Positions 1 through 10,099 of a stretch of 10,154 bases of DNA are shown here, in pieces (positions within the stretch are counted from its first letter, which is position 1; each line of letters starts with the position of its first letter). Source of the DNA: a virus (Duplodnaviria > Heunggongvirae > Uroviricota > Caudoviricetes); IMG/VR virus record IMGVR_UViG_2671181118_000005. One strand, 5' to 3'. The notes beneath the pieces are model-generated. The model worked only from the letters and a program-made list of their open reading frames with translations. It did no database searches and was not told where the DNA came from. The position numbers and the translations under genes are program-made.

Positions 1-2454
1 GTAATCAAACGACGATGTGGTTTTCGTCCCCAAATCCGTACTGGATGCGCTGGCGCTGTGGGTGTGCGATTTAATGCCGTCCTGTTCCTGAGACAATACG
101 GCCCGACCACTGGCAGGTTTGCCCTTAATCGTCCAGCCACGCATATCAGGGATCACGCCTGACGGATAAGCGGCTGCAAGTTTCGGGTAAGCAGATTTGT
201 CAAAAGTCTGCCCCTGCATCAGGGCATAACCAGACGGAACGGTATCTGATGGCCACGGGATTGGTGCGCCGACTGGGTAGCTTTCTGGTGGAAGATTTTT
301 CGAGGTATAAACTTCTGCCCAGCCTTCCTCAAAACCATAACCGTCTCTTGAAGAACGGTAGAACAGACCACCATTTCTGTAATGCGCCTTCATCTGCAGG
401 GTCCGGCAACTTCCGACTCCGGTATAGAAGTTAACCAGAATATAGCTGTCGCCAGAGCGGGTGACATTGTAAGCGCCTGATTCGGCATTCCAGGGAACGC
501 CACCATCCGCATCGGCATATGTATCCGTTGCCCTTCTGGCAAAAGCAGCCACATGCGCGGCGGTTAAAGTAATATCTTTGGAACCATCAAATGGAACACC
601 GGATATTTTTCTTGCAGTCTGGAGTTTTGTAGCAGTTGCAGCATTACCAGTGGTGTTCTGATTACCCGTAGTGTTTACACCTGGAAGGTTAATATTTGCA
701 GAACCGTCGAAAACAACTCCACCGATAGATCTTGCCGTCTGCAATTTCGTGGCTGTACTTGCATTACCATTCAATGAACCAGTTAATCCACCTGTAACAG
801 ACAACGGACCTGAAACTGTTCCTCCGGTTGTTGGCAGTGCTCCAATATCTGATGGTGTAGGTTTCTGATGTGAGCTATACATCGTATAAACAACACCATA
901 GGTAACGCTGGAAGGCTTACTCGCTGAATATGTTGGCGAGGTATAAACAGAAACTGACGCATTTGCAGTACAATCCCAATGGATATTTACACTCGTCGCA
1001 TAATTGCCAATCTCAACGTAAATATCATATGTATCGCCGGATGTGTTGATCCAGGCGAAATTCGTTAATCCGACGGCTGTACGCTTCCACAAAGCCCCGG
1101 TAATTCCTTTGGGGTTTCCATTGCCTGCTCGTAGAACCAGTTCTGAAATGCCTGCCTGATGTGGGGAACCGACGTTGTAACCAGCGCCACCAATCAATGC
1201 GATGTAAACGATGGAACTCGCTTGTGGCATGGTAACCGTAGCCAGTTTGAACCACCCAGCCCCGCCAGAGAAAGACATCGTTACTGAATTTAAAGTACCA
1301 ATATCTTTCGGCGTTAATGTTATATCCGCAGTCAGTGCTTTTCCGTTAACTTTTCGGTTAGATGGCACCCTGCTATTCGCATTGTCATTGGCTGCTTTAA
1401 CTGCTTTTGGCGTTGCGGCCAGCGATTCACTGGTGCTATCAACAGCACTGCTAAGTTTCACAACACCTTTAGTTGTAAGGCTTGCGTCTTCCATCGCAAC
1501 TGCACCGGCAATCTCTTCAGCACGATCAGCAGCAGCTTCCGCACGGGTCGCAGCGGATTCAGCAGTAGTTTTGCTCTGAGATGCCGCCGTCGCACTGCCA
1601 GCTGCCTCTGTCGCCTTCGTGGATGCTGTCGTGGCGCTGCCTTTCGCTGCTGATGCCTGTCTGCTCGCCTCATCTTTTGAAGCAGACGCAGATGATGCCG
1701 ATGACGCCGCCGAACTGGCGGACGATGCAGCTGCCATTTTTGAGGATTCTGCACTGGTTTCCGAGGCTTTCGCGTTCGTTTCGGATGTCTTCGCTGCGGA
1801 TGCAGACCTCGCTGCTGCGCTGGCCTGTTCAGCGGCTTCGCCAGCCTTCGTTGTGGCTGTTGAAGCAGACGATGCGGCGCTTTCTGCCGATTTTCCGGCG
1901 GCGGTGGCACTGGCTGAGGCCTGCCCGGCACTTGTTGACGCGGCACTGGCAGACGACGCAGCCGCTGTTTTTGAGCCTGCCGCAGCCGAGGCGCTCTGTC
2001 CCGCTGCCGTTTCAGAAGACCTGGCGTTTGTCTCAGACGTCTTTGCCGCCTTCGCGGAATTGCCTGCCGCCGTTGCCGAGGAAGCGGCACTACTGGCGCT
2101 TGATGATGCGTTCGTTTCTGATGATTTCGCTGCCTCTTTTGAGGCCGCCGCATCCCGGGCTGAGGTGGCTGCTTCTGACGCCTTCGTGGTCGCGGCGGAT
2201 GCAGAAGTGGCTGCTGATTGTTGTGACGCTGCCGCATTCGTTTCTGACGTTTTCGCCGCACCGGCACTGGTAGCTGCCGCGCTTTTTGAGGACTCTGCAG
2301 CAGCACTTTTTGCTGCTTCACGGGCCTTTGTCGATGCCGTTCCTGCGCTGGAAGACGCTGACTGAGCCGACGACGCGGCCTGTCCGGCTGACGTGCTGGC
2401 GGCACGTGCTGAGCCTGCAGCATCGGTTATTACCACTTCCCGGATCGCTATACG
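1..2454 (-). pseudogene. stf: Side tail fibre protein (lambda Stf family), 5'-truncated, C-terminus beyond window start. Frame is open from an in-frame TAG at 2455-2457 to position 1 and has no start codon of its own.
   Basis: Hand translation of the minus strand (codons with lowest coordinate = 1 mod 3). Positions 60-1 give [20 protein letters not shown], matching the recalled lambda Stf C-terminal region; 1740-1380 give Ala/Ser/Thr-rich sequence ([26 protein letters not shown]) matching mid-Stf; 2440-2380 give [16 protein letters not shown], matching Stf around residue 140. Spot checks at 541-600, 901-960 and 1201-1260 show no stops. Confidence 0.8.
1460..2430 (-). repeat. Low-complexity Ala/Ser/Thr-rich coding repeat inside the tail fibre gene; it leaves several frames open on both strands.
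   Basis: Reiterated GCN/TCN/ACN codons in the true frame. The six-frame track shows long stop-free ORFs in other frames (Arg/Pro/Gln-rich on minus, Ala/Asp-rich on plus) typical of such repeats. Confidence 0.6.
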
Positions 2455-3292
2455 CTATTCCGTTAAAGATAATGGGCGGAATAATGATTTGACGGTCAAA
2501 GTTATGATCATCGCTGATGGTGACTGTAACCGTCCCGTTTGGTGTTTCCGTATTACCCCACGTACCAGCCTGTTTCGGGAATGATTTGGATACAGCTTTA
2601 ACGAAGTCACCTCTGACCTGAGTCGCCTCCAGCATGCCCTTAATCGTACAGTTTTCATTTACCGTGACATTGTTGAGCGTCCCGGCGTTCGCATTCACAC
2701 TGCCACTGATATCCGCATTTTTAGCGGTCAGCTTTCCGTCCGGTGTCAGGGAAAATGCCGGTGGATTTCCACCGCTGGTAATGGTGGGGGCCGTCAGGCG
2801 TTTCAGGAACACGTCGTTCATGAATATCTGATCGCCCTGACCAACAAACATCGGTTTTGTGTTGCCATTCGCAGGATTAACCATCGCAATCCTGTCCGCC
2901 GCCAGCAGCACCTGACTCTGCATGCCGTCAGGGGTGTTCTCAATATCCACGATGGCCTCTTTTTCCGGTACATGCTGCACGGCGGTGATGGCATACGTGC
3001 CGTCGTCGTTCTCACGGATACTCACGCAGCGGAACAGGCGCTGGCGCAACGTCGGCAGCTTCAGCCCCCATACGCTGTATTCAGCAACGCCGTCAGGAAC
3101 ACGGCTCACTTTCACCTTCACGCCGTCGGTGACGGACTGAACCTCCACGCTGACCGGACTCCCCTGCCCGTCAACCAGGCTTATCAGCGTGGTGCCGGAA
3201 GATGGCAGCGTGATTTCACGGTCGAGCGTCAGCGTCCGGGTCTGGCTGTTTACCGCCAGCACGCGCCCGCCGGTGCGGATACCCAAGCTGGA
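2318..3292 (-). pseudogene. J: Host specificity / central tail fibre protein J, internal fragment. N-terminal part is missing, the C-terminal receptor-binding end is missing, and the frame runs about 40 codons out of frame into stf before stopping at 2318.
   Basis: ORF translation [29 protein letters not shown]...[14 protein letters not shown]...[30 protein letters not shown] and ...[56 protein letters not shown]... matches the recalled C-terminal third of lambda J. The J frame opens right after a TAA about 3293-3301. Confidence 0.8.
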
Positions 3293-3504
3293 GTGGCGAA
3301 CGTTTTACCCTTGCTGATGAGGTATTCACTGATTTCGCTGTACCACATGTGGCTGAGTGCATTCTGGGAAAGACTGCGTCTCTCGCGCCACGGTTTAAGC
3401 ACCATGCGAAAGCATTTGCCGTCCTCCAGATAAGGCTGGATCTGCCGACCGATAGCGGTGAAGTTACCGCGATGCAATTTGATACCATCTTGTGGGAGGT
3501 TCAC
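3250..3504 (-). pseudogene. NinB/Orf-family recombination protein, N-terminal fragment of about 65 residues joined to J-derived sequence.
   Basis: GTG start at 3502-3504 preceded by GGAGGTG. The motif ERRSLSQN...W resembles the RSLDQNRKLW region of lambda NinB as recalled. The ORF then reads through J-derived DNA to a stop at 3250. Position after ren and the cargo island fits the lambda nin region. Confidence 0.5.
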
Positions 3505-3698
3505 GCTTCACCTCCGCAGAGATCAAACGCTGGATGCAAAATATCGCAGGTGCATTTCTGCATCTGTGAATGGAGAAGAGAGGTTGGATTGTATGTGCGC
3601 ATAAACGTCCCCGTTTAGCGCAGAAGTCACCGGAGTTGTTCAGGCCCCAATGGCATGATTATGGCTGGTTGATTATTGGAAATCAAATGTGCTGAAAA

Positions 3699-4208
3699 TT
3701 AGTCTGCCAAGTCTTCCTCAGTCGCAACTGGGTAATTCCAAATATCAAAAAAAGCTATAGCCTCCTGCCATTTGCTCCATAAGTTATCAAGTACTTGTGT
3801 AGGTTCCGTACTTTTAAAAACAGAATCAGCCGCATCACCGTTATGAACTTCCTCGTACAGTTCCATTATTAGCAGATTAACAAAGTACTGTTTCAACATT
3901 AATGCCTGATTACCTTCTTTCTGCTGGCTATCCTGCTTGATGATCTCCATCGCCCGTACTAGGCACCTGATGATATCCGCTGCATCATTAACGCTCCATT
4001 CAGATCCGCGCTTATCTTTAGCTGATGAATTGGCTCTCTCAGCGCAAGCCTTTAAAGACTCATAAAGGTAAACTCTATTTTGTAGCTGCAGCGCTTTTTT
4101 TGACGTGTACCAACTTGCAAGCGCCGACCCCGCTGCGGCTAATGTGCCAAACGCAGAAATACCTGCTGCTATTGCACTTAAGTCGGCACTGTCAAAGTTC
4201 CACATCAT
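3699..4208 (-). CDS. Hypothetical 169-aa protein with a single N-terminal hydrophobic segment (likely membrane anchor) and a helical, acidic C-terminal domain. Orphan; function unknown.
   Basis: ATGATG start with AAGGTG Shine-Dalgarno about 6 nt upstream. Residues about 10-32 (LSAIAAGISAFGTLAAAGSALASWY) are hydrophobic. AT-rich upstream region, and an upstream terminator separates it from the preceding gene. Confidence 0.55.
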   Translation of the reverse strand: MMWNFDSADLSAIAAGISAFGTLAAAGSALASWYTSKKALQLQNRVYLYESLKACAERANSSAKDKRGSEWSVNDAADIIRCLVRAMEIIKQDSQQKEGNQALMLKQYFVNLLIMELYEEVHNGDAADSVFKSTEPTQVLDNLWSKWQEAIAFFDIWNYPVATEEDLAD

Positions 4209-4383
4209 CGTTACACCTTATATAAATACCCCTCAGTAATATCCAATAAGGTATGTGCACAATCAATATAATTTTATCCGTATCGGCACATAGCGATTTG
4301 AACGCTACTGGTAATGGTATATTTTAGATTATATCGTCCAGTTTACAGCACCCGTATTTTATGAAATGGACTCGCATATTACC
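4209..4383 (-). promoter_or_regulatory. AT-rich putative promoter/operator region for the 169-aa gene, including an inverted repeat ATGTGC-N27-GCACAT at 4253-4291.
   Basis: Non-coding AT-rich DNA between an upstream terminator and the start codon. The inverted repeat was seen by eye; no promoter consensus was scored. Confidence 0.3.
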
Positions 4384-4422
4384 CAAAAAATGCCAGCACT
4401 TCCGTCATCGTAGAATGCTGGC
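4384..4422 (-). terminator. Rho-independent terminator candidate downstream of the 99-aa ORF (minus-strand sense).
   Basis: Perfect 7-bp inverted repeat GCCAGCA ... TGCTGGC at 4392-4398 / 4416-4422, followed on the minus strand by ATTTTTTGGG (plus 4384-4391). Confidence 0.4.
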
Positions 4423-4466
4423 AGTATTTCTAACTAGTGACTTTATTGGAACAGATTCTGACGGAA

Positions 4467-4766
4467 TTATGGTAACACTCGACTCCACTTATCATCCAGC
4501 CACGGCTGGAATTTTACATGTGCCGTTTCTCTGGCGAGGATTGCTCGCGCTCTGTTGAGTATCTGGGGATATTCTTGCTCGATAGAAGTAAAGCGGCCGG
4601 CTTCGCGGTGCTCCGCAACCTGAAGTAGTGGAGTAACGTTCTGGCAGGCAGTTAACATCACATCACCTGCTCGCCATAACCAAGCACGTGCACAAAGTTT
4701 GTTATCAGTGAATTGTTTTGTGATTGGGTATTGTTGAACTGCTAGAACGAGAACGCCAGCATCCAT
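4467..4766 (-). CDS. Hypothetical 99-aa protein, no recognisable motif.
   Basis: ORF with ATG start bounded by an in-frame TAG three codons upstream; weak ribosome-binding site; followed by the terminator-like hairpin at 4384-4422. Confidence 0.4.
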   Translation of the reverse strand: MDAGVLVLAVQQYPITKQFTDNKLCARAWLWRAGDVMLTACQNVTPLLQVAEHREAGRFTSIEQEYPQILNRARAILARETAHVKFQPWLDDKWSRVLP

Positions 4767-4877
4767 TGGCAGTCCCTATAGTAAAACCATAGCTCAGGAC
4801 GCTTCGTTCAGGATAGATAATTTTATTGTGCTTACCTAACTTTCTTACTATAGCACGGTTGAAAAAGTGATTATTAC

Positions 4878-6404
4878 TCAAAAATAAACCTCACCATCAA
4901 CCATATATTTGAGAGTACTTATCGCCTGCTGGGCGGATATTGTTTTCATTAAAGGATAGTGTTTAAAAACAATGCCATTCATAAAATAGATATCACAGGT
5001 TTTATTATCTGTATTGATTATGATTTTTTCGAATGTTTTATAGGCAAGTGTACGACATAGCTCTCGCCCATTTTTACTGGTTAAGTCAATAGCATGAAAA
5101 TCACCAAGTGAACTCACCGCTTTACTCTTCAAAGTTTTTAATGATACAGAAGCCCTTCGTAATTCCTTATCTAATACTCTGATTTTTTCTGCTATAGCGG
5201 TAACTTCAGGCGCAACAGATAATGCAGCAATTAAATTATTAATTTTCATCTGGAGCTCAATAATTTTCAACTCTAAAGTTTCATTAGCATCTTTCTTGTT
5301 TTCAACTGGTTGGATTTTACTACAATTAAAAAGCAACTCATTAATGATATTATAATCAACCAAATCTCTCTTTATTGATGGCCTGTCACATCGATGCAGT
5401 CTTCTCATCGGACAAACATAATAGCCATGCAAACTTCCAGATACCGCATGAACAATCATGGTATTACCACAAGCCTCGCACTTCATAACTGTTCGAAGTA
5501 GATTTATCAACATAGGATTTTTGCTACTATTGCTAATACCAAAAGGTGCCAACCGAATTTCCTGCACAGCGTAAAACAAATCATCTGATATGACTCTGGG
5601 ATAATAGCCAGCGATTTCACTTATTCCTTTACCTCTTGCACGATATGAAGGTACGCATATACCTATCAGAGCTTTATTCGCTAATAATTTTTCAATTACA
5701 GAAGGTCCCCATGCACTTTCTTTTCCTGAGAAATTCTTTACAGCATGATCATTTAAATACTTGGCTATTGCATTCAATGAGCGCCTTTCCATCCTGAGTT
5801 TAAAAATTAGCTCAATAGTTTTCACCCTGTCGGGGTCTGGAACAAAAGCCGTTCTTTTGTCATCCAATGAGAGCCATCTCGGACAAGACGCCGTCATAAT
5901 CGTGCCTGACTCCAGTGCATCCTGCCGTTTTTTCTTCCATGATAATTTAACCCGACTTGACTTTATCTCGCTTTCTTCATTTGCCCTTTGTGCTATAAGT
6001 ATGGCTTTTATTAATGAATATGGCTCATTCAATGAGTCAATATTATAGACTGTATTATCGCAAAGAGTTATAACATCAATACCGTGATTCAAAATCAATT
6101 TCAGACGCTCAATCGCCTCACCGACTTTTTCTCTTGAAAGTCTGTCCAGACTTTCAACTAACAATGTAGTCCCTGGCAATATATAACCATGTTCTATAGC
6201 ATCTAAAAATTCCGAAAAAGCTCCTGATTGTGCATGCTTTCCATTGAATGCGCTTAACCCCAAATCTTCATACGTTACGGTATCAAGGTAATAATCACTA
6301 TTTACCTTTAGCCATTCAGTAATAAGCCTTCTCTGGCGGTTTAATGAATCACCAGACATCTGACTTGGTGATGAAAATCGCATATATGCTATGGCTTTTT
6401 TCAT
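4878..6404 (-). CDS. ybcK: Large serine recombinase, 508 aa (resolvase-type catalytic N-terminal domain, recombinase domain, Cys-rich zinc-ribbon, coiled-coil region). Resembles the DLP12 putative recombinase YbcK.
   Basis: N-terminal AYMRFSSPSQ...R motif typical of serine recombinases; C-x2-C ... C ... C cluster (CEACGNT...YYVCPMRRLHRCDRP). Length and position next to emrE match K-12 ybcK as recalled. AT-rich codon usage. Confidence 0.85.
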   Translation of the reverse strand: MKKAIAYMRFSSPSQMSGDSLNRQRRLITEWLKVNSDYYLDTVTYEDLGLSAFNGKHAQSGAFSEFLDAIEHGYILPGTTLLVESLDRLSREKVGEAIERLKLILNHGIDVITLCDNTVYNIDSLNEPYSLIKAILIAQRANEESEIKSSRVKLSWKKKRQDALESGTIMTASCPRWLSLDDKRTAFVPDPDRVKTIELIFKLRMERRSLNAIAKYLNDHAVKNFSGKESAWGPSVIEKLLANKALIGICVPSYRARGKGISEIAGYYPRVISDDLFYAVQEIRLAPFGISNSSKNPMLINLLRTVMKCEACGNTMIVHAVSGSLHGYYVCPMRRLHRCDRPSIKRDLVDYNIINELLFNCSKIQPVENKKDANETLELKIIELQMKINNLIAALSVAPEVTAIAEKIRVLDKELRRASVSLKTLKSKAVSSLGDFHAIDLTSKNGRELCRTLAYKTFEKIIINTDNKTCDIYFMNGIVFKHYPLMKTISAQQAISTLKYMVDGEVYF

Positions 6405-6659: not shown

Positions 6660-6992
6660 TTAATGTGGTGTGCTTCGTGACAATAAATTAATAACCAACA
6701 CACCGGCACAAATCAACATCATGCCTATAATGGCTGGCAGGTCCAACCGTTGGCCGAAAAATCCCCATGATAGTAAGCTAATCAGGACAATACCGACTCC
6801 TGACCAGATAGCATAAGCAATCCCTGTAGGAATATAAGCCAGCGTCTGAGCTAATAACCAGAATGATGCACAATAACAAATAATTGTACCAACAGATGGC
6901 CATAACCGTGTAAAACCTTCTGAAAACTTCATTAAGGTTGTACCAATGACCTCTGCAAGTATTGCACCACCAAGATAAATATAAGGGTTCAT
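6660..6992 (-). CDS. emrE: Small multidrug resistance (SMR) efflux transporter EmrE, 110 aa.
   Basis: From the internal Met (MNPYIYLGGAILAEVIGTTLMKFSEGFTRLWPSVG...LSRSTPH) the translation is near-identical to E. coli EmrE as recalled. AGGAAAG ribosome-binding site upstream of ATG at 6990-6992. The upstream 18 codons in the track ORF are probably not translated. Confidence 0.93.
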   Translation of the reverse strand: MNPYIYLGGAILAEVIGTTLMKFSEGFTRLWPSVGTIICYCASFWLLAQTLAYIPTGIAYAIWSGVGIVLISLLSWGFFGQRLDLPAIIGMMLICAGVLVINLLSRSTPH

Positions 6993-7059
6993 AGCATATT
7001 CTTTCCTGTTCAAACTGGAGAGAATTGTACTACAGTTTGAACTCAACTCACCTGTTTCA

Positions 7060-9098: not shown

Positions 9099-9718
9099 AT
9101 GAGTCAGGTTGGTAATCATTCATTCGAATTTCCGGCATCGCAAGGTGTACAGGGTGGTACTGTTACACTCTTCCTTACCATACCAGGAAGATCGCTGGCT
9201 CGTTTCCTCGCTTCAGATAATTACGGCCATACACTGGAACGCTCTCAGCGAGAAATTAATCCAAATCGAGTACGAAAATTTTTAAATTATCTCACTAACG
9301 CAGACTCAAGAAATGAGCCTTTTATCATTCCCCCTCTCGTAGGTAACTGTGATTCGAATATAGAATTTGTACCGTTTGGCAACACAAATGTTGGTATAGC
9401 CAGAATTCCCCTCGACGCCGAAATAAAACTTTTTGATGGTCAACATCGTGCAGCTGGCATTGAGATATTTTGCCGAAGTTCCCCATCAACGCTCATGGTT
9501 CCCATGATGCTTACAATGAATCTGCCGCTAAAAACCCGGCAGCAGTTCTTTTCGGACATAAATAACAACGTTTCTAAGCCATCAGCGACCATCAATATGG
9601 CGTATAACGGCCGGGATGATATTGCTCAGGGAATGATATCCTTCCTGACCCAACATACTGTATTTGCCGATATAACCGATTTTGAACACAACGTAGTGCC
9701 ATTAAAAAGTAATATGTG
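9099..9718 (+). pseudogene. DGQHR-motif protein (DndB-like, ParB/Srx-fold family), 3'-truncated after about 206 codons by the IS insertion.
   Basis: ATG at 9099 with AGGAGG ribosome-binding site. Translation contains the family-defining FDGQHR motif (…AEIKLFDGQHRAAGIEIF…). The last 16 codons of the track ORF ([16 protein letters not shown]) are encoded by the IS left end, not by the gene. Confidence 0.7.
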
Positions 9719-9772
9719 TGAACCGCCCCGGGAATCCTGGAGACTAAACTTCCTGAGAAAGAGGTAAACAGG

Positions 9773-10099
9773 ATGACTAAAAATACTCGTTTTTCCCCCG
9801 AAGTCCGTCAACGGGCAGTCCGTATGGTTCTGGAAAGTCAGGATGAATATGACTCACAGTGGGCGGCAATTTGTTCCATTGCCCCAAAGATTGGCTGTAC
9901 GCCGGAGACTCTGCGTGTCTGGGTTCGCCAGCATGAGCGGGATACCGGGGGCGGTGATGGTGGGCTCACCAGCGCTGAACGTCAGCGTCTGAAAGAGCTG
10001 GAACGTGAAAATCGTGAACTGCGCCGCAGTAACGATATCCTTCGCCAGGCTTCCGCTTATTTTGCGAAGGCGGAGTTCGACCGCCTCTGGAAAAAATGA
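9773..10099 (+). CDS. IS629-group transposase OrfA (helix-turn-helix plus leucine-zipper subunit), 108 aa.
   Basis: [60 protein letters not shown]... matches IS629 OrfA as recalled. Confidence 0.9.

Follow-up and report, generated by a model that had tools for sequence, protein, structure and literature searches.

A J/stf deletion scar in a decaying lambdoid prophage of Escherichia coli

The window, i.e., the whole stretch of 10,154 nucleotides that was analysed (IMG/VR record IMGVR_UViG_2671181118_000005), contains a place where a fragment of the tail tip gene J passes directly into a fragment of the side-tail-fibre gene stf in another reading frame. A sequence-only reading had interpreted it as an out-of-frame fusion, and had seen in the long open stf frame either a recent deletion or a fibre expressed in some other way. 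The question is what produced this joint and whether the fibre remnant can still be a working gene.

The window is a lambdoid cryptic prophage of E. coli integrated at the icd/e14 site, with all features on the minus strand. Its order is O′-P-ren-emrE-serine recombinase-...-ninB′, J codons 488–610, J codons 912–1084 and stf from codon 146 to the end, followed by tfa. The layout in strain E2 is int-xis-...-exo-O′-P-ren-emrE-recombinase-...-ninB′-J′-′stf-tfa-McrBC-like-icd′, and the annotation of the E2 prophage includes no head, tail or lysis genes.

Comparison with the intact J-lom-stf regions of phi458, PhiR34_1, lambda imm21, MDR_56 and PSS-10 gave clean breakpoints. Window positions 2945 to 2425 match J and positions 2427 to 1 match stf collinearly, the DNA between them being missing. 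The joint itself (2425–2428, minus strand) is a 4-nt microhomology, AACC, common to J, which reads …GGTAATAACC and continues with CGGG…, and to stf of the PSS-10 type, which reads …CATGCAACC and continues with GATGCT…. The deletion is equivalent to 1416–1417 bp in the intact relatives PhiR34_1, MDR_56, PSS-10 and phi458. It removed the last 81 codons of J, the whole of lom and stf codons 1–145, and shifted the frame by +1, J codons starting at 3n+1 coordinates and stf codons at multiples of 3. No long direct or inverted repeats were found flanking the joint, which thus combines the two marks of a deletion scar, microhomology and a lack of recombinase target repeats. The same joint sequence recurs unchanged in 17 complete E. 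coli genomes and two IMG/VR contigs and is therefore not an assembly artefact. Genuine though it is, this is an ordinary deletion scar of 1.4 kb in a degraded λ-like prophage of E. coli.

The alignment to intact J-lom-stf bears out the proposed loss of lom, the 3′ end of J and the 5′ end of stf, as well as the out-of-frame fusion, in which a 322-aa J ORF enters stf DNA. The proposed end of J homology at ‘...PPIIFNG’ (about 2466) was incorrect; relative to phi458 J, the homology continues for 13 codons, to 2425–2428. The end had been placed about 40 nt early because λ J was used instead of the true parental J type, and the C-terminus of λ J is a different allele. Similarly, the estimate that J falls about 95 residues short is right only in relation to λ J (1132 aa), while 81 residues are missing in relation to the parental 1165-aa type.

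The J-homologous ORF (3286–2318, minus strand) has no start of its own; its upstream end is an out-of-frame joint with ninB′, and two further deletion joints flank it. The ninB′/′J joint (3280–3283, minus strand) shows GGTA microhomology, and the entire late region from ninB through J codon 487 is gone there. The truncated ninB/ybcN (3284–3504, minus strand) belongs to an ORF at 3504–3250, the last 11 codons of which are out-of-frame J; PGAP labels this fragment in E2 ‘NinB/YbcN family protein, missing C-terminus’. Sequence comparison with phi458-type J assigned codons 488–610 to the first J piece (2944–3284, minus strand). It is followed at 2944–2945 (minus strand) by an in-frame J-internal deletion of 933 bp (311 codons, about codons 611–911) with TA microhomology. 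This joint was found in 18 E. coli genomes, and its two J parts are contiguous in none of 386 matching phage records. The second piece (2425–2945, minus strand) comprises codons 912–1084 of the 1165-aa phi458-type J and is 99.2% identical to phi458 J at the nucleotide level (blastn) and 100% identical at the amino acid level (blastp). It contains the Pfam domain Phage_Tail_Tip and a partial Ig_GpJ_C, the latter matching profile positions 1–71 of 135 and lying partly within the out-of-frame tail. In this tail (2318–2424, minus strand) the J frame runs through 35 codons of stf DNA up to the TGA at 2320–2318. As J codons 1–487, 611–911 and 1085–1165 are absent from the element, neither the full length of a functional tip attachment protein J (~1130–1165 aa) nor its complete C-terminal receptor-binding domain is present. 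The three scars in series (ninB′/′J, the in-frame J-internal deletion and J′/′stf) together took every virion-building gene.

The fibre gene lacking codons 1–145 (1–2424, minus strand) is open in translation up to the window edge. Its frame was correctly recognised as different from that of J, but it starts at codon 146 of the intact 1092-aa Stf (codon 148 of the 1134-aa PhiR34_1 Stf) and not at about residue 140. The TAG at 2455–2457 (minus strand) is indeed in the stf frame and limits the open frame upstream; it lies within J-derived DNA and is the first upstream stop rather than a part of stf. The predicted opening of more than 800 codons agrees with the 818 codons found in the window after this TAG, and 414 additional nt in E2 extend the frame to 946 codons before the stop, after which tfa follows. 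Chance does not account for the open frame, because the remnant is 99.4–99.8% identical to intact 1092-aa fibre genes; together with tfa it shares 99.2–98.7% identity with stf-tfa in PSS-10 and MDR_56, where this pair is intact. The Pfam domains Collar and Phage_fiber were detected, and the rod and the C-terminal collar/repeat region of a functional stf are retained in 946 codons collinear with intact Stf. The tfa gene (Pfam domain Caudo_TAP) is intact and directly downstream. The start, the ribosome-binding site and the N-terminal tail-attachment domain are missing, the lost 145 N-terminal residues being annotated as ‘prophage tail fiber N-terminal domain’.

The statement that no start codon remains was inexact, since an in-frame GTG (2434–2436, minus strand), the first after the TAG, is present in the J-derived sequence, but its Shine-Dalgarno match is too weak to be usable (−1.1 kcal/mol, compared with −4.4 to −7.9 at real starts of this and related phages). 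For E2, ML35 and TUM3755, PGAP annotates a ‘phage tail protein’ of 716 aa from an internal ATG (1735–1737, minus strand) that has no Shine-Dalgarno match, while in other genomes it places the start at ATA 2451 or ATG 1494, giving three different starts for one joint sequence. At GTG 2436, ATG 1737 and ATG 1494 no Shine-Dalgarno match reaches the strength seen at real starts. On the coding strand near the joint, no promoter-like site was found in 2300–3600, and no sigma-70-like promoter or terminator in 2300–3545. PGAP also annotates a ‘hypothetical protein’ on the plus strand (1619–2365), antisense to the Ala/Ser-rich fibre rod; it is a composition artefact, because every frame is open in this Ala/Ser-rich stretch. 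Judged by its candidate starts, the ′stf-tfa remnant appears to be a start-less pseudogene with no credible start, though weak translation from GTG 2436 or an internal start might still occur.

The joint is a polymorphism within E. coli. It is carried by 17 of 5426 E. coli genomes; only about 0.3% of complete E. coli genomes have the element with these scars, and an exact-match search for the joint in GTDB, with one genome per species, gave no match. The suggestion of a recent deletion is supported by the substitution counts. Relative to the intact Stf of PSS-10 and MDR_56, the remnant has one private change in 2838 nt, which is E2-specific and synonymous, and seven of the eight joint-bearing alleles examined have no substitutions within ′stf (the set includes E2, TUM3755, CEC0010, ML35, NCTC9100 and Z217-2). 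Only 3.6% of possible substitutions create a stop, and an intact frame is therefore expected. From these counts we infer that recency, and no unusual expression, explains the open frame: there has probably been almost no time for decay since the sequence belonged to a working fibre gene or was last converted by one. The full-length frame is kept in 14 of the 17 joint-bearing genomes, which is also compatible with weak selection, but the absence of substitutions makes this point uninformative.

The prophage is otherwise defective and continues to decay. Beyond the two extra joints upstream of the J/stf joint, related elements carry later lesions: an IS2 insertion in stf (RM10410), a 173-codon deletion (Z217-2), a 677-bp deletion in the exo region (L013) and, in HEC0011, loss of the J/stf joint together with 2.7 kb of stf and 254 bp of the first J piece, so that nearly the whole fibre gene is gone. 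The CEC0014 allele differs from E2 at 145 sites, only three of which are outside the tfa-stf-J′ segment, the flanks being nearly identical; its stf variants have a pN/pS of 0.15, and about half of them match the stf allele of 52F4. This is patchy gene conversion, in which the remnant recombined with homologous DNA.

Taken together, the data favour, with a probability of roughly 90%, a microhomology-mediated illegitimate deletion scar in a grounded lambdoid prophage at icd, leaving a remnant that is start-less and young. About 1417 bp, from J codon 1084 to stf codon 146, would have been lost across the 4-nt AACC. J would thereby have lost its receptor-binding end and stf its start with the tail-attachment N-terminus, lom would be gone, and the remainder would be fused out of frame; this is the third such scar beside ninB′/′J and the in-frame J-internal deletion. 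The ′stf-tfa frame would be intact through youth or recent conversion by a working fibre gene. The remnant probably pairs and recombines with J/stf/tfa of other lambdoid prophages, being refreshed thereby, and might supply incoming phages with fibre sequence; donation is extrapolated from the published Rac and Qin stf/tfa experiments, and conversion itself was observed in one strain.

Other readings of the locus are much less probable. The remnant might be kept as a cassette, a store of fibre-tip sequence useful to lineages or phages and held by second-order selection. The conversion confined to the tail-derived segment points to a locus in homologous exchange, λ experimentally takes up DNA from the Rac and Qin stf/tfa regions (PMC3945230), and the unrelated remnants of 52F4, PSS-10 and HEC0011 likewise keep ′J-(lom)-stf-tfa ends beside defence genes. 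However, any homologous DNA exchanges and selection is not needed, and the remnant is broken or lost in relatives, which makes such a role improbable. It is somewhat more doubtful still that the locus is a domesticated gene, encoding an N-terminally truncated fibre and Tfa from GTG 2436, ATG 1737 or ATG 1494 under purifying selection for a host function. The 946-codon frame with tfa directly downstream, its annotation as a protein by PGAP and the upstream genes lying all on the same strand, so that read-through transcription is conceivable, fit this idea. Yet Shine-Dalgarno matches as strong as those of real starts are lacking at all three candidates (at GTG 2436 and ATG 1737 there is essentially no match), a fibre deprived of its 145 N-terminal residues would find no tail to attach to, and the remnant is disrupted or deleted in related strains. 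The comparison with intact Stf homologues, proposed as a check for purifying selection, gave no signal whatever, there being a single private substitution.

Expression as a J′-Stf fusion protein, by programmed +1 ribosomal frameshifting or transcriptional slippage at the joint, is very improbable. The stf frame is indeed J +1, with a 45-codon overlap between the two (2454–2320), but the search for frameshift signals at the joint revealed no slippery heptamer X XXY YYZ, no +1 motif of the CUU UGA / CCC UGA type and no homopolymer run of at least 5 in 2470–2310. A programmed frameshift site would call for an upstream ORF with its own start, a slippery sequence in the overlap and a stimulatory element; the J fragment begins start-less at the out-of-frame ninB′ joint and carries the 311-codon internal deletion. 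The suggestion that the fibre is expressed in some other way is consequently unsupported, no credible start, ribosome-binding site or frameshift signal having been found. Least probable of all is a natural arrangement in which a short Stf follows a short J variant, with no deletion; this has nothing in its favour beyond the existence of the ORFs. It is refuted by the comparisons with intact relatives: J extends 81 codons past the joint in phi458, 52F4, PhiR34_1 and at least 120 IMG/VR loci, the J parts are contiguous in none of the matching phage records, and intact Stf, 99.4–99.8% identical, has 145 extra N-terminal codons.

Although the scar is of an ordinary kind, its J side recurs. Deletion endpoints in J return to a small set of shared sites in independent prophage remnants, often at CCGGTA, and the J side of the present joint is among them. 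In the numbering of a 3498-nt J, breakpoints at about nt 1458 and at nt 2440 each have two different partners, the one at nt 2715–2734 has five, and the one at nt 3250–3254 has four, including the joint described. CCGGTA or CCGGT is found at three recurrent sites, and GGTA/TA is a recurrent microhomology. It is possible, as a tentative suggestion, that the endpoints are non-random, remnants at different chromosomal sites breaking J at the same positions, and that sequence- or structure-directed breakage or template switching shapes prophage decay. The J/stf joint may accordingly be other than a purely random slip, because its J endpoint is a site where other independent deletions also end. Several causes were considered and rejected. 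Hairpins do not explain the sites convincingly: three of the four carry small stems, but of the 80-nt windows a single one folded better than its shuffles (z = −3.2; the others −0.1, +0.6 and −0.9). Selection for frame does not fit, the joints being partly in-frame and partly out-of-frame, nor does shared descent, as the left partners differ (ninB and essD; λ A, yfdR, gpL, an IS end and J codon 610). Within nt 2715–2734, moreover, the joints are at different nucleotides and hence not all derived from one another. A literature search on CCGGTA or prophage deletion hot spots found nothing relevant, and we know of no restriction, Chi or topoisomerase recognition sequence that matches the hot spots.

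The J/stf joint is textbook prophage decay, and the finding itself is of small significance. It is a reminder that an extended open frame may reflect nothing more than the youth of a pseudogene, and that automatic annotation is unreliable at this locus, with three starts (ATA and two internal ATGs) and an antisense ‘hypothetical protein’. Remnants as active recombination partners of fibre genes are relevant to the evolution of phage host range and to safety arguments in phage therapy. Should a larger sample confirm the recurrent J breakpoints, they would offer a practical way into how illegitimate deletion works in bacterial chromosomes.

Among known systems, the element resembles the K-12 cryptic prophage e14 in occupying the same icd site (icd′ fragment, flanking iraM and ycgX), while its early region is DLP12-like (exo, P, ren, emrE, ybcK-type recombinase, ybcN). 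As in e14, DLP12, Rac and Qin, late genes are deleted and stf/tfa fragments are kept at the prophage end; the set of scars, ninB′/′J, J lacking codons 611–911 and J′/′stf at AACC, is the element's own. Unlike the K-12 cryptic prophages, it has a McrBC-like module beside tfa and no Pin-type invertase. An invertible tail-fibre segment of the Pin/Gin/Cin type was rejected, since McrBC-like genes and no invertase follow tfa; no inverted repeats were found in 5600–10400 of locus L001, whereas PhiR34_1 has a PinQ/PinR-type gene next to tfa. In what is retained, gene order and sequence agree with the λ J-lom-stf-tfa module (Ur-λ, phi458, PhiR34_1, the MDR_56 prophage), with ~99% identity to phi458 J codons 912–1084 and to the stf-tfa of MDR_56 and PSS-10, but all of lom, stf codons 1–145 and most of J are missing and the frames are disrupted. 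The classic inactivated side tail fibre is reportedly the stf frameshift of λ PaPa (orf-401/orf-314) described by Hendrix and Duda in 1992, and the split orf-401/orf-314 annotation of λ stf was seen in this analysis. In both cases stf is non-functional with most of the coding sequence still open, but λ PaPa has a 1-nt frameshift in an otherwise complete gene of a viable phage, while here a 1.4-kb deletion took the start and N-terminus in a dead prophage. De Paepe et al. (2014, PMC3945230) showed that infecting λ recombines with the stf/tfa regions of two defective prophages, Rac and Qin. The element is similar to these partners in offering homologous stf/tfa DNA within a defective prophage, with exchange with other alleles evident; transfer to phage is experimental for Rac and Qin, and for the present element exchange is read from allele sequences.

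Alignment by blastn with intact J-lom-stf modules (phi458, PhiR34_1 and lambda imm21), supplemented by the PSS-10 remnant and the prophage of MDR_56, revealed three clean joints. Joint A (3280-3283) leads out of frame from ninB to J codon 488 through a GGTA microhomology, and joint B (2944-2945) connects J codons 610 and 912 in frame through a TA microhomology, with 933 bp lost. Joint C (2425-2428), the subject of the sequence-only reading, connects J codon 1084 out of frame to stf codon 146 through an AACC microhomology; the J parent reads ...GGTAATAACC|CGGGAGG... and the PSS-10-type stf parent ...CATGCAACC|GATGCTGC.... The three deletions, ending on 2-4 nt of microhomology, are therefore products of illegitimate recombination of a type such as slipped mispairing or template switching. 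The stretch missing at joint C measures 1416-1417 bp in intact relatives and comprises lom together with 81 codons from the end of the 1165-aa J and 145 from the beginning of the 1092-aa Stf, so that the stf start and N-terminus are lost. The description of an out-of-frame J/stf fusion lacking lom and both gene ends is thus correct in its essentials: relative to J, the stf frame is offset by +1, and translation of the minus strand from 2457 gives a TAG and then 818 sense codons up to the window edge. After its J part, the J-homologous ORF (3286..2318) runs through 35 out-of-frame codons of stf DNA to a TGA.

The proposed end of J homology at ...IIFNG proved to be an artefact of comparison with lambda J, because the C-terminal domain of the latter is a different allele (54% identity). 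The second J piece (codons 912-1084) matches phi458 J up to joint C itself, with 99.2% nucleotide and 100% amino acid identity. A naturally short J is excluded, since the J pieces are not contiguous in any phage of the collection, and in more than 120 IMG/VR loci J runs on normally beyond this position.

A stretch identical to the window is present in E. coli strain E2 (NZ_CP104509). The relevant genes lie on the minus strand, and their order in E2 is integrase, excisionase, ..., lambda exonuclease, an O' fragment, P, Ren, EmrE, a 508-aa large serine recombinase, a P22AR C-terminal domain protein, a 169-aa hypothetical protein, truncated NinB/YbcN, a "phage tail tip" pseudogene, a "phage tail protein", tail fibre assembly protein and a McrBC-like pair, followed by an icd fragment adjoining iraM and ycgX. 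This order and the icd fragment identify the window as part of a lambdoid cryptic prophage occupying the e14 attachment site at icd. Its early region is DLP12-like, and genes for the head, tail shaft or lysis are absent from the E2 gene order. The emrE multidrug exporter gene (6660-7046, minus strand) and the ybcK-like recombinase gene (4878-6404, minus strand) lie here in an icd-integrated prophage; in the K-12 map they belong to DLP12, at another site. The 169-aa ORF (3699-4208, minus strand; WP_000990013) has no Pfam match and is kept in all carriers of the prophage. The McrC and McrB-like AAA-ATPase pair is situated directly beside tfa at the prophage end, past the window's left edge (2570-5643 of compared locus L001); other remnants have different defence-like genes there, namely HNH and AAA ATPase (52F4) or a GIY-YIG protein (PSS-10).

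The long stf frame could mean that the fibre is still made in some other way, or that the deletion is recent. As to the first possibility, the claim that the frame has no start codon needs modification: GTG 2436 (in J-derived sequence) and ATG 1737 are the sole in-frame candidates near the joint, and neither pairs like a genuine start. Their best anti-Shine-Dalgarno pairing is -1.1 and +0.2 kcal/mol, respectively, compared with -4.4 to -7.9 kcal/mol for 13 genuine starts from this window and related phages. The suggested search for ribosomal frameshift signals found no slippery heptamer, known +1 motif or homopolymer run of five or more in 2470-2310, and the J fragment from which ribosomes would have to shift lacks its own start. 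On the minus strand, the interval between 3658 and 467 contains no promoter-like site. Nothing supporting expression of the truncated stf was found, and the remnant is probably untranslated. The PGAP start for the same joint sequence varies by genome (minus strand: ATA 2449-2451, ATG 1735-1737 or ATG 1492-1494), with RefSeq "phage tail proteins" of 955, 716 or 635 aa; a 782-aa product starts from the ATA in the internally deleted Z217-2 allele. In the Ala/Ser-rich fibre rod every frame is open on both strands (1619-2365 and 1581-2273, plus; 1458-2423, minus), and the antisense ORF over it, annotated by PGAP as a 244-245-aa "hypothetical protein" (WP_021570482 / WP_033801682), is almost certainly a composition artefact.

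Recent deletion is better supported. Counted from the joint, the frame has 946 codons in E2, and its end, ...NIAFNYIVRLA*, is that of intact Stf proteins. Over window positions 1-2424 the remnant is 99.8% identical to the intact stf of PSS-10 and 99.4% identical to that of MDR_56, which sits in a complete prophage at the attB-lambda site with a 1165-aa J, Lom, a 1092-aa Stf and Tfa. The codon alignment of these three over 946 codons contains one lineage-specific change in E2, synonymous, three in PSS-10 and 12 in MDR_56, and seven of the eight joint-bearing alleles examined have no substitutions in the truncated stf relative to one another. Since only 3.6% of possible single substitutions in stf create a stop, the intact frame is exactly what neutrality predicts at this age, and it probably reflects youth and occasional conversion.

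The pattern of Z1323CEC0014 (locus L006) points to such conversion. This strain keeps all three joints and differs from E2 at 145 positions, 142 of them within the tfa-stf-J' segment (equivalent to window -1000..3300), with almost identical flanks. The variants first appear 24-27 nt from the joint; in stf, about half of them match the 52F4 allele and pN/pS is 0.15. This patchy divergence looks like gene conversion with other lambdoid fibre genes, whether resident or visiting, as donors, and it agrees with published recombination experiments between lambda and stf/tfa DNA of two defective prophages, Rac and Qin (PMC3945230). The remnant could likewise donate fibre-tip sequence to phages.

Of 5426 complete E. 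coli genomes, 17 have joint C and 18 have joint B. The lesions separating the carriers are structural, not point mutations: an IS2 in stf of RM10410 (~992-999 of the window), an in-frame 519-bp deletion in Z217-2 (~146-664), a one-codon slip in the Ala/Ser rod of E2-type alleles, a 677-bp deletion in the exo region of IMG/VR contig L013, and two further deletions in Z1323HEC0011 (HEC0011). In the window itself (9099-9767 and 9773-10099, plus strand), an IS3-family element, whose orfA starts at 9773, cuts the DGQHR-domain (DndB-like) gene at ~9768; in E2 this gene is intact, with a length of 1065 bp. One HEC0011 deletion starts 1-3 nt upstream of joint C and extends to a point 126 bp short of the stf stop codon; a second one removed 254 bp of the first J piece (codons 488-610), beginning on a 7-nt homology across joint A. 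Both begin 0-5 nt from the older joints. The carrier pattern is one of ongoing decay, not maintenance; structural decay continues together with homologous exchange with other alleles.

Breakpoints in J were pooled from the window, fetched genomes and two conditional surveys of IMG/VR loci, a small sample partly conditional on the search patterns. In it, deletion endpoints appear clustered rather than scattered, independent remnants with different partners breaking at the same few positions, which is a lead and not a result. In the 3498-nt J, single joints lie at nt 1035, 1218 and 1626 (the last with gpL), two at ~1458 (ninB in the window and essD in L109, both via GGTA), two at 2440 (different partner sequences, L072 and L117), five at 2715-2734 (yfdR, gpL, an IS end, lambda A and J codon 610) and, on the 3' side, four at 3250-3254 (joint C, the HEC0011 joint, L196 and L119, the last a doubtful assembly containing an N); in the final 260 nt of J, just two more 3' breaks were observed. 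Three pairs among the twelve 5' joints lie no more than 1 nt apart, against ~0.07 expected under a uniform model by our own arithmetic on these positions. The 1458 and 2715-2734 breakpoints each coincide with one of the five CCGGTA sites of J, a third such site (nt 3341) forms the right end of the L196 deletion, the 2440 breakpoint lies on a CCGGT, and in stf the HEC0011 deletion ends on the right at TCGGTA|TTGG. Small hairpins occur at three of the sites, with folding energies not convincingly better than those of shuffles. Neither frame selection nor shared descent explains the pattern, and no literature on recurrent J breakpoints was found. The loci concerned are the window (2944-2945, 3280-3283, 2425-2431), L002 (~7856), L017 (~11375), L016 (6529 and 7116), L044, L072, L092, L104, L109, L117, L119 and L196. 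L092 leaves J exactly at ...AATAACC|; predicted in-frame fusions join the EssD holin N-terminus to J codon 488 in L109 (~4700-4830) and the gpL N-terminus to J codon ~907 in L104 (1-100).

These recurrent breakpoints are the sole element possibly of interest to a specialist. The remnant has every feature of a deletion scar and lacks the defining features of a working stf or J gene, of a programmed frameshift site and of an invertible fibre cassette. It is one more case of an already well-known process: grounded lambdoid prophages, such as e14, DLP12, Rac and Qin, decay by deletion.
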